Assembly (NCBI RefSeq): GCF_011045215.1
Contig: NZ_CP049201.1
DNA from: Escherichia coli
GTDB taxonomy: Bacteria > Pseudomonadota > Gammaproteobacteria > Enterobacterales > Enterobacteriaceae
Strand: one strand, 5' to 3'
DNA: 64,000 nucleotides
In this document: positions 483 to 2,203 of the stretch, piece by piece
Numbering within the stretch: position 1 is the stretch's first letter
How the letters are laid out: the number at the start of each line of letters is the position of its first letter
The notes under the pieces: generated by a model
The model's input: the letters and a program-made list of their open reading frames with translations, nothing else
Told to the model about the DNA's origin: nothing
The model's database searches: none
Made by a program: the position numbers and the translations under genes

Positions 483-512
483 TTCTGAAAAATTACTGAA
501 TTAACAGCGAAG

Positions 513-535
513 AATGGCGTGATAAGCGCCATTCT
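513..535 (+). terminator. Hairpin downstream of epmA (8-bp perfect stem GAATGGCG/CGCCATTC)
   Basis: Perfect inverted repeat 30 nt after the epmA stop; no strong T-tract, so terminator function is tentative. Confidence 0.4.
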
Positions 536-700
536 GTAGCATATGTTTTCATTTTTCTGTTAAAGGCCACAATTTAAGACTGGATATTTGATATCATCCA
601 GGTATCAATTCTGTATTGGTTTTGACGCTGCCCGCTCAATGTTGGGCAGTGCAGTTCAGTGGGCGCGTTTTATACACGCGCTGAAATGAAGGATGGTTTC

Positions 701-2203
701 ATGCCTCACACGATAAAAAAGATGAGTCTGATAGGACTCATATTGATGATCTTTACTTCCGTATTTGGATTTGCCAATAGCCCATCGGCTTATTACTTAA
801 TGGGTTATAGTGCGATTCCCTTTTATATATTTTCTGCATTGTTATTCTTTATTCCATTCGCCTTAATGATGGCTGAAATGGGAGCTGCTTATCGCAAAGA
901 AGAAGGTGGTATCTATTCCTGGATGAATAATAGTGTCGGACCACGTTTTGCCTTCATTGGTACGTTTATGTGGTTTTCCTCTTATATCATCTGGATGGTG
1001 AGTACCTCCGCGAAAGTTTGGGTACCGTTCTCAACATTCCTCTATGGTAGCGACATGACCCAGCACTGGCGTATTGCCGGACTGGAGCCTACGCAGGTGG
1101 TTGGTCTGCTGGCAGTGGCATGGATGATTCTGGTCACCGTCGTTGCTTCTAAGGGGATTAATAAAATTGCCCGCATTACTGCGGTGGGCGGTATTGCAGT
1201 AATGTGTCTGAATTTAGTATTGCTGTTAGTAAGCATTACTATTTTGTTATTAAATGGTGGGCATTTCGCGCAGGATATTAATTTCCTTGCATCACCGAAC
1301 CCGGGTTATCAGTCCGGTCTGGCAATGCTATCGTTTGTGGTATTTGCTATTTTTGCCTATGGCGGAATTGAAGCGGTTGGTGGTCTGGTCGATAAAACGG
1401 AAAATCCAGAAAAGAACTTTGCCAAAGGTATTGTTTTTGCCGCTATTGTTATTTCAATCGGTTATTCGCTGGCAATATTTTTATGGGGCGTCAGCACAAA
1501 CTGGCAGCAGGTATTAAGTAATGGTTCCGTTAACCTCGGCAATATTACCTATGTGCTGATGAAGAGCCTCGGGGTGACGCTGGGTAACGCACTGCATTTG
1601 TCTCCTGAAGCGTCATTGTCGCTGGGCGTATGGTTTGCGCGTATTACCGGACTTTCGATGTTCCTCGCTTATACCGGTGCGTTCTTTACGCTTTGCTATT
1701 CACCGCTGAAAGCCATCATCCAGGGGACGCCGAAAGCATTGTGGCCGGAACCGATGACGCGCCTGAATGCGATGGGGATGCCGTCTATCGCCATGTGGAT
1801 GCAGTGCGGGTTGGTTACTGTCTTCATCCTGCTGGTTTCGTTTGGTGGCGGTACCGCATCGGCGTTCTTTAACAAGCTGACGCTGATGGCGAACGTGTCT
1901 ATGACGCTTCCTTACCTGTTCCTCGCGCTGGCTTTCCCATTCTTTAAAGCACGTCAGGATCTCGACAGACCATTTGTGATTTTCAAAACGCGTATGTCGG
2001 CAATGATTGCGACGGTGGTTGTCGTTCTGGTGGTGACATTTGCGAACGTCTTCACCATTATTCAGCCTGTGGTTGAAGCCGGAGACTGGGACAGCACATT
2101 GTGGATGATTGGCGGCCCTGTCTTCTTCTCGCTGTTAGCGATGGCGATTTACCAGAACTATTGCAGTCGCATGGCGAATAAACCTGAGTTAGCTCTCGAC
2201 TGA
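701..2203 (+). CDS. yjeM: Putative APC-family amino acid/polyamine transporter YjeM
   Basis: ORF 659..2203; ATG at 701 preceded by AAGGA; 500 aa from this start matches YjeM; highly hydrophobic multi-TM protein. Confidence 0.9.
   Translation: MPHTIKKMSLIGLILMIFTSVFGFANSPSAYYLMGYSAIPFYIFSALLFFIPFALMMAEMGAAYRKEEGGIYSWMNNSVGPRFAFIGTFMWFSSYIIWMVSTSAKVWVPFSTFLYGSDMTQHWRIAGLEPTQVVGLLAVAWMILVTVVASKGINKIARITAVGGIAVMCLNLVLLLVSITILLLNGGHFAQDINFLASPNPGYQSGLAMLSFVVFAIFAYGGIEAVGGLVDKTENPEKNFAKGIVFAAIVISIGYSLAIFLWGVSTNWQQVLSNGSVNLGNITYVLMKSLGVTLGNALHLSPEASLSLGVWFARITGLSMFLAYTGAFFTLCYSPLKAIIQGTPKALWPEPMTRLNAMGMPSIAMWMQCGLVTVFILLVSFGGGTASAFFNKLTLMANVSMTLPYLFLALAFPFFKARQDLDRPFVIFKTRMSAMIATVVVVLVVTFANVFTIIQPVVEAGDWDSTLWMIGGPVFFSLLAMAIYQNYCSRMANKPELALD

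Follow-up and report, generated by a model that had tools for sequence, protein, structure and literature searches.

Hairpins, a conserved candidate promoter and a lineage-restricted leader in the epmA–yjeM gap of Escherichia coli

The gap between epmA and yjeM in Escherichia coli holds no new RNA class. On balance we favor reading it as ordinary composite intergenic punctuation, made up of a terminator hairpin for epmA, a promoter for yjeM and leader hairpins that act in a generic way. Perfect inverted repeats cluster in the gap beyond chance, the hairpin at the epmA 3′ end covaries across species, and a block with the conservation profile of an extended −10 promoter is shared by every genus that has the gene pair. 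The likelihoods that we attach below to composite punctuation, to functionless leader hairpins, to co-transcription of the two genes and to a regulatory RNA overlap, and these are not mutually exclusive. The direct value of the results is small, and nothing in them should surprise a specialist. They do supply un-annotated coordinates, in a well-studied genome, for a likely epmA terminator, a likely yjeM promoter and start, and two leader hairpins.

Layout of the gap

The window analyzed is a stretch of 64,000 nucleotides of E. coli DNA, and positions are counted from its first letter. The initial annotation set the gap at 483–700, a length of 218 bp, and this agrees with the epmA stop codon and the yjeM start codon. 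The features discussed here are as follows.

1–482, + strand: 3′ part of epmA (elongation factor P lysine ligase), as annotated by RefSeq in K-12 and in strain A30, to which the window is 100% identical, and as seen in the open reading frame listing
480–482, + strand: epmA stop codon, TAA
483–700, 218 bp: epmA–yjeM gap, from the epmA TAA to the RefSeq yjeM ATG at 701
511–535, + strand: H1, the putative epmA terminator or 3′-end hairpin, with a stem of 9–10 bp, a loop of 5–7 nt and a predicted energy of −19.2 kcal/mol
540–565, + strand: T-rich tract CATATGTTTTCATTTTTCTGTTAAAG, at about −64 to −39 of the predicted yjeM start
567–571, + strand: CCACA, at about −37 to −33, of which CACA (568–571) is invariant in 51/51 species
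580–601, + strand: dyad CTGGAT-N10-ATCCAG around the −10 element, a candidate operator
587–597, + strand: candidate yjeM core promoter of the extended −10 type, from the conservation profile, with T587, TG at 589–590 and the hexamer TATCAT at 592–597
602–606, + strand: predicted yjeM transcription start, at about A604 (K-12 ∼4,383,742), from the usual −10-to-start distance
604–620, + strand: weak 5′-proximal hairpin AUCAAU/AUUGGU, −2 to −3 kcal/mol, predicted in 16/29 species
626–651, + strand: H3 stem-loop, with the conserved outer stem (C)GCUG/CAG(U)G and z = −3.2 in the window
661–683, + strand: H4 stem-loop, with the core GCGCGU (663–668)/ACGCGC (676–681) and z = −3.3
689–693, + strand: Shine–Dalgarno sequence AAGGA, 7 nt before the yjeM ATG, read from the sequence
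701–2203, + strand: yjeM, encoding a 500-aa transporter of the glutamate/GABA antiporter family, from the RefSeq annotation

Both genes have the same orientation. The gap corresponds to 4,383,621–4,383,838 of K-12 MG1655 (window position equals K-12 position minus 4,383,138), and of 5426 complete E. coli genomes, 5425 have the 401-bp query region that contains it. The yjeM leader carries no RefSeq feature, and the papers on yjeM/b4156 retrieved in a literature search contain nothing on the regulation of the gene. Urine is one condition in which yjeM is expressed (PMC5404293). The physiological substrate of YjeM is unknown, as is its function (PMC12003319).

Inverted repeats and folding

Three inverted repeats had been reported from the initial inspection, at 513–535, ∼630–650 and ∼661–680, and all three are present, 1–2 nt from those positions. 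They comprise the arms of H1, AGAATGGCG (511–519) and CGCCATTCT (527–535), a perfect 9-bp match; CTGCCC (628–633)/GGGCAG (644–649) in H3; and GCGCGT (663–668)/ACGCGC (676–681) in H4. We also find two that had been passed over, the dyad CTGGAT (580–585)/ATCCAG (596–601) and the repeat TTGATA (588–593)/TATCAA (603–608). The repeats had been described as lying immediately before the yjeM start; they do lie upstream of it, but 20 nt separate the end of the last hairpin from the ATG, and the Shine–Dalgarno sequence at 689–693 is left uncovered.

This clustering exceeds chance. When perfect hairpins with a stem of at least 6 bp and a loop of 3–12 nt are counted, the gap has seven matches (five of them distinct), where 2000 dinucleotide shuffles average 0.75 (P = 0.002), and for a 9-bp stem P = 0.009. 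The fold of region 483–715 has z = −3.76, equaled by none of 200 shuffles, and the single-hairpin folds of H1, H3 and H4 have z = −3.5, −3.2 and −3.3, respectively. Folded as one 218-nt piece, the gap has z = −4.7, lower than 288 of the 288 other 218-nt tiles of the window (mean −0.75, minimum −3.87).

Comparative sample and distribution

A scan with the YjeM protein across one genome per species gave 79 loci. In ∼50 species of Enterobacteriaceae yjeM directly follows epmA across a gap of 155–266 bp, and the aligned gaps divide into three parts with very different histories. The conserved block at ∼563–601 is the sole part common to all genera. H1 is present in Escherichia, Citrobacter, Salmonella and Kluyvera. 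The stretch with H3 and H4 is likewise found in the branch formed by these four genera only, with H4 weak or lost in Kluyvera; that branch has ∼70 extra nt between promoter and Shine–Dalgarno sequence compared to the shortest leaders. Fourteen species, from genera that include Enterobacter, Lelliottia, Leclercia, Huaxiibacter and Superficieibacter, have the same gene pair and the same promoter with a leader of ∼25 nt (30 nt when counted from aligned position 602 through the end of the ATG) and no hairpins. Other genera show unrelated hairpins, or none, at the place of H3 and H4. The leader is an example of 5′ UTR hairpins being gained or lost between close genera while the promoter stays fixed. 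The absence of both leader hairpins from many genera with the same gene pair was not visible to a reader of the single sequence.

The hairpin at the epmA 3′ end

H1 begins 29 nt past the epmA stop codon, and in most E. coli its stem is lengthened to ACAGAATGGCG/CGCCATTCTGT. In the alignment of 29 species, both partners have changed in 7 of its 11 pairs (A-U has become G-C in 8 and in 12 species, for instance), and pairing extends to 97.5% of cells, compared to 34–43% in controls slid by 1–3 columns. None of 500 shuffles equaled the covariation score, and the loop varies freely across species. H1 thus has the compensatory changes of an intrinsic terminator stem, together with the GC-rich stem, short loop and placement just downstream of a stop codon that are usual for one. 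Its U-tract is another matter: by the rule of at least five T in eight, the S. arizonae ortholog passes but the window copy and the Kluyvera ortholog fail. What follows the stem in E. coli is GUAGCAUAUGUUUUC, a poor U-tract (AUUCUGUAG), and a T-run begins only 8–9 nt past the stem.

At the same post-epmA position, Enterobacter, Leclercia, Pseudescherichia and their relatives have different GC-rich palindromes, which in Enterobacter and its relatives we read as being of REP type. Because other genera place their own palindromes there, some hairpin at the epmA 3′ end appears to be under selection. For H1 itself, a role as a Rho-independent terminator, as a stabilizer of the mRNA 3′ end, or as both fits the covariation, and termination would probably be leaky in E. 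coli. The suggestion of an epmA terminator made in the initial annotation thereby gains a precise location, covarying pairs and near-complete pairing across species, while the U-tract in E. coli falls below the five-in-eight rule. The Term-seq supplements of Adams 2021 yield no mapped 3′ end for epmA or yjeM; these are large tables, possibly incomplete, and the absence is weak evidence. The T-rich tract at 540–565, of which T544, T546–547 and T553–555 are kept in 40–47 of 51 species, is possibly the tail of the terminator, an UP-like element for the next promoter, or both.

A conserved promoter block for yjeM

The most conserved feature of the gap had escaped the initial annotation, and a scan of the gap for canonical sigma-70 −35/−10 pairs gave no promoter. 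Across 51 species, conservation in this block peaks at −15, −14, −12, −11 and −7, each kept in 49–51 species, as an extended −10 sigma-70 promoter predicts: T587 is found in 51, T589 in 50, G590 in 49, T592 in 50, A593 in 49 and T597 in 51. Positions 591 and 594 (−13 and −10) vary freely, being kept in only 24–26 of the 51. The full pattern T-n-TG-n-TA-nnn-T stands at the aligned position in 47/51 species, and in the window TGATATCAT at 589–597 is the sole TGnTAnnnT of the gap, where 0.15 would be expected.

Spacing agrees with this profile. In the 14 short-leader species, the last T of the hexamer lies 31–33 nt before the ATG, which leaves room only for a promoter and a leader of ∼25 nt. Because of the extended −10 profile and this tight spacing, we infer that yjeM transcription starts near 604. 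The promoter would then lie ∼55 nt downstream of H1, and as an extended −10 promoter it would have no need of a good −35 element. A start-site entry for yjeM is absent from the Cappable-seq, Adams 2021, Kim 2012, ROSE and Salmonella ChIP-exo supplements, whose tables are possibly incomplete and therefore provide weak evidence.

Several conserved bases of the block are not explained by contacts with RNA polymerase. CCACA lies 20 bp from the −10 hexamer, too distant for a normal −35 element, and its invariant CACA is joined by CTGG at 580–583, kept in 44–50 of 51 species, and by G601, kept in 51/51. These bases, in CCACA and in the CTGGAT/ATCCAG dyad, may be contacts for a putative regulator, and the dyad may well be an operator. 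With these unexplained invariant bases, the promoter block offers a handle for finding the regulator of YjeM, and we consider this the most useful new point of the analysis.

We compared the block with known regulator motifs by eye, against consensus sequences, using the gap sequence and its conservation. The sigma-54 consensus is TGGCAC-N5-TTGC, with its GG and GC elements 11 nt apart; the CTGG...TTGC of the block has the wrong spacing, with 7 nt from G583 to G590. We rejected a class II CRP site with CCACA as one half-site (its left half is not conserved), a MerR-type long-spacer promoter (the dyad is off-center in the spacer), a FadR/GntR-type CTGGT...ACCAG site (the spacing is wrong) and look-alikes of PhoP, RcsB, OmpR and IHF sites (not conserved). 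An alternative promoter formed by TTTTCA (546–551) and CACAAT (568–573), which would make 580–601 a 5′ RNA hairpin, matches the consensus at 8 of 12 positions and has a fixed C at −12.

The leader hairpins

Transcription from ∼604 would give a leader of ∼97 nt (∼604–700) in which the weak 5′ hairpin, H3, H4, an unpaired stretch, the Shine–Dalgarno sequence and the ATG follow one another. Because the candidate promoter lies upstream of both 626–651 and 661–683, it is plausible that H3 and H4 belong to the yjeM leader. The initial proposal of a structured yjeM 5′ UTR is strengthened to this extent by the extended −10 element conserved in 47/51 species upstream of the hairpins, and it depends on a start site that is itself a prediction. 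Within the leader, GGAT at the Shine–Dalgarno sequence is kept in nearly all of the 51 species of the gap alignment.

H3 is found in 29 of 29 species of the Escherichia–Citrobacter–Salmonella–Kluyvera branch, with a mean z of −2.5 and z below −2 in 18. Its inner stems are clade-specific and nonetheless complementary: CCC/GGG, CCCAC/GUGGG, CUCU/AGAG, CUCC/GGAG and CUUGUC/GACAAG. H4 occurs in Escherichia, Citrobacter and Salmonella with a shifting register, is lost or weak in Kluyvera, and has a mean z of −1.6. Within Escherichia RNAalifold recovers H3 and a 7-bp H4; within Citrobacter/Salmonella it recovers a short H4 together with H3 and the 5′ hairpin. The covariation terms within clades are small (−0.4 and −0.9 kcal/mol), and on the 29-species sequence alignment, in which the hairpin arms are misaligned, the program finds no consensus.

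A covariance model built from Citrobacter and Salmonella matches the Escherichia leaders at 39–55 bits, and matches nothing beyond the orthologous site in the window or in related loci. In the alignment fitted to this model 90.7% of cells are paired, compared to 30–50% in slid controls, a figure to be taken as an upper bound because the fitted alignment leans to its own structure, misaligns Kluyvera and imposes a different register on the Escherichia H4. In 29/29 leaders folding is better on the sense than on the antisense strand, which fits RNA-level stems with G-U pairs and speaks against DNA palindromes that bind protein. Taken together, the evidence for a conserved leader structure is only moderate: the mean z over 30 long leaders is −0.99, and the K-12 haplotype has a weakened H3. 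Structural conservation, which had been named as a check on the leader, is indeed present, with H3 in every species of the branch, although its extent is modest and limited to a single branch of the Enterobacteriaceae.

H3 would be kept by selection as a sense-strand RNA stem in this branch. The most likely role of H3 and H4, in our analysis, is a generic tuning at the level of the mRNA rather than the sensing of a ligand; the hairpins would adjust mRNA stability or translation, for example by slowing RNase E or 5′-end-dependent decay.

Alternative readings

It is also conceivable, though we hold it to be somewhat unlikely, that H3 and H4 have no function, being either what is left of a decaying insertion specific to the lineage or drifting GC-rich palindromes of low complexity, of a kind that forms readily. 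Their restriction to one lineage agrees with this, as do the unrelated hairpins, or none, found there in other genera, the register shifts of H4 between species and its loss in Kluyvera. Many orthologs have z near 0 to −1.5. Within E. coli there are two main leader haplotypes, the window type being at least 99% identical in 2352 genomes and the K-12 type standing at 95%; the leader differs by 5% between them, compared to 1.5% for the 401-bp query including its coding flanks. In the K-12 haplotype H3 is weakened (z = −1.6) and H4 re-registered. Against an absence of function, the K-12 changes re-register H3 and H4 rather than destroy them, H3 persists in 29/29 species despite differing inner stems and has z below −2 in 18/29, and G-U pairs give sense-strand specificity in all 29 leaders.

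An unlikely alternative to separate transcription units is that epmA and yjeM are co-transcribed, with H1 terminating only in part or acting as a processing barrier, and with the promoter block as an RNA element (the 580–601 hairpin) or a secondary promoter. The genes do share an orientation, the pair is conserved in ∼50 species, and H1 is without a good U-tract in E. coli. Changes within 580–601 are one-sided and mostly preserve G-U pairing, with 92.5% of cells paired. The profile of the block, however, is that of an extended −10 element and not of a stem, since the invariant positions are those that would form the loop. As an RNA hairpin the 580–601 dyad is weak (z = −1.0), and no pair in it has changed on both sides in the 29-species alignment. 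The distance from block to ATG, moreover, spans ∼30 to ∼110 nt across species, which would be odd for a translational operator, and the different palindromes that follow epmA in other genera suggest that 3′-end formation there is selected. A promoter for yjeM remains the reading we prefer for the block.

We consider it improbable that the H3–H4 leader is a specific, undescribed cis-regulatory RNA that switches yjeM, whether a riboswitch, a protein- or sRNA-binding leader or an RNA thermometer. Amino-acid-type transporter genes are often leader-controlled, and yjeM is an orphan of this type. The hairpins are kept with altered inner stems across several genera, their structure is sense-strand-specific, no other tile of the window is as structured as the gap, and in Escherichia a 6-bp hairpin (686–691/697–702) touches the Shine–Dalgarno sequence and the AUG. 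Set against these points, that hairpin is absent outside Escherichia and shows no covariation, there is no U-tract after either H3 or H4, and neither pairs with the Shine–Dalgarno sequence at 689–693. Only stems and flanks are kept, with no conservation of the sequence or length of loops and junctions; 14 species with the same gene and promoter lack the element; and H3 is degraded in K-12.

No Rfam family was matched. When both strands of positions 300–900 were scanned against Rfam 15 with cmscan at E ≤ 10, there were three matches of 10–18 bits, at the level of chance and against thresholds of 65–99, and no Rfam family reached its gathering threshold in 20 Firmicute yjeM loci. The initial annotation had refrained from assigning an RNA class and had named a lack of Rfam or structural conservation as refuting its reading; the outcome is split, with no Rfam match but with some conservation of structure. 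Its cautious interpretation holds broadly. The tables of Adams et al. 2021 (PMC7815308), which are possibly incomplete, list no Rho-dependent 3′ end on this strand between 4,377,088 and 4,386,122.

Particular candidates were rejected on similar grounds. A riboswitch formed by H3 and H4 would have no conserved unpaired core or junction for a ligand pocket and no expression platform, the 686–702 hairpin being confined to Escherichia and free of covariation, and the element does not travel with the gene, as 14 species have promoter and gene without the hairpins. For a leader-peptide attenuator, the 33-codon TTG reading frame at 588–689 is broken by 1-nt indels (in the H3 loop, in Escherichia lineages) and is absent in Citrobacter; other upstream reading frames and an N-terminal extension of yjeM (GTG 659, ATG 686) are not conserved. 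By eye, the sRNA GcvB could form ∼5 bp with the CA-rich start of yjeM.

The missing U-run, the free Shine–Dalgarno sequence, the unconserved loops, the lack of a surviving upstream reading frame and the dispensability of the module together argue against a riboswitch, an attenuator or a thermometer. The same features favor generic tuning by the 5′ UTR or the near-neutral drift of an old insertion. We give little credence to the H3–H4 leader, perhaps with CCACA and CTGG, as a lineage-specific module tying YjeM to a specific signal through RNA structure. If this were true, working out what the module binds (protein, sRNA or small molecule) would reveal the physiological substrate of YjeM.

It is very doubtful that the palindromes act as DNA, whether as repressor operators downstream of the start or as cruciform or nucleoid-protein targets: they are short and perfect, and the CTGGAT/ATCCAG dyad is conserved in sequence like a protein-binding site, but H3 and H4 change in sequence while complementarity stays, with many G-U pairs that are C-A mismatches on the other strand, and for this reason they carry the signature of RNA rather than of a protein-binding site. 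This objection covers H3 and H4 and does not extend to the dyad at 580–601.

Comparison with known systems

In being short GC-rich intergenic palindromes, the hairpins of the gap recall REP/BIME elements. They differ from these in E. coli in being single copy and in matching nothing else in the window or in related loci. We rejected REP/BIME or another repeated or mobile element as the identity of H3 and H4, given that the leader has a median of one place per genome in 5425 E. coli genomes and that the covariance model matches the orthologous site only.

With riboswitches and the transporter leaders in Rfam, the yjeM leader shares its position as a structured leader upstream of a transporter gene. 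It differs in having no Rfam match, no conserved core and no platform, and in its narrow, patchy distribution.

Another parallel for the leader is provided by ompA-type leaders of enterobacterial mRNAs, which have a stabilizing stem-loop in the 5′ UTR with a protective hairpin at the very 5′ end. The yjeM leader is similar in its length of ∼100 nt and in its simple stem-loops without conserved loops and without coupling to a terminator or to the Shine–Dalgarno sequence. It is different in that its 5′ hairpin is weak (−2 to −3 kcal/mol) and its strong hairpins stand ∼22 and ∼57 nt from the predicted start.

H1 resembles intrinsic terminators and 3′ stabilizing hairpins in its GC core, its 7-nt loop, its closeness to the stop codon and its combination of a covarying stem with a free loop; as in intrinsic terminators, its A-rich 5′ flank pairs with a U-containing 3′ flank. 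It departs from them in E. coli in its poor U-tract, with the U-run 8–9 nt further on.

The promoter block, finally, is like extended −10 sigma-70 promoters in being fixed at T (−15), G (−14), T (−12), A (−11) and T (−7) and free at −13 and −10, and in combining the lack of a usable −35 element with a T-rich tract upstream. Where it differs is in the additional invariant CCACA (about −36), CTGG (about −23) and G (−3) that lie outside the consensus, and these extra bases point to the involvement of an additional factor.

Conserved bases around the inferred yjeM promoter

Three features around the inferred yjeM promoter stand out in the alignment of epmA-yjeM gaps from 51 Enterobacteriaceae species, with distances counted from the inferred yjeM transcription start:

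568-571 (within 567-571), CACA, at about -36; identical in 51 of 51 species
580-583, CTGG, at about -23; nearly invariant, in 44-50 of 51 species
601, G601, at about -3; present in 51 of 51 species

These bases are unaccounted for by sigma-70 contacts, and to our knowledge no regulator consensus fits CACA, CTGG or G601. In E. coli strain E4, we found an IS1A within the gap (2250-2947 of the related locus L083), inserted at window position ~567, directly 5' of CCACA and the promoter block, so that this block and H1, the hairpin following epmA, lie on opposite sides of the element.

A further hairpin, terminator-like and antisense to yjeM, lies in the first codons of the gene:

722-741, minus strand, terminator-like hairpin, ATGAGTCCTATCAGACTCAT then CTTTTTTATC

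This hairpin explains why Rfam gives a chance-level match to an Actinobacillus sRNA, in the terminator portion of that RNA.

Genomic context and relatives of yjeM

The epmA-yjeM segment was matched on plasmid-typed records in 3 of 5430 cases in the E. coli genome collection. As a separate point, ampC amplicons arising under amoxicillin selection often have a boundary in the epmA-yjeM neighbourhood (PMC12625342). Downstream, yjeM and mscM are separated by only 150 bp (2204-2353) in the window strain. K-12 carries yjeN and yjeO at this place, so E. coli is polymorphic for the presence of these two genes between yjeM and mscM. The genome of Enterobacter sp. ENT03 has, 3' of yjeM, a second coding stretch that resembles part of epmA (L030 4525-4908; residues 27-154, 87% identity).

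Relatives with 58-68% identity to YjeM occur in Listeria, Enterococcus, Bacillus, Gottfriedia and Vagococcus (loci L051-L081), a likeness unusually close for Firmicutes versus Enterobacteriaceae, which suggests horizontal transfer. We found no Rfam families in 20 of the Firmicute YjeM loci.

Palindromes at the H1 position

Comparison of the gaps revealed palindromes, e.g. GCCGGGTGGCGCTG.CGCTTACCCGGC, at the H1 position in Enterobacter, Leclercia and Pseudescherichia (loci L025, L031, L032, L038, L045, L046, L049, L064 and L070). We read them as REP-type elements, a different solution from H1 at the same post-epmA position.
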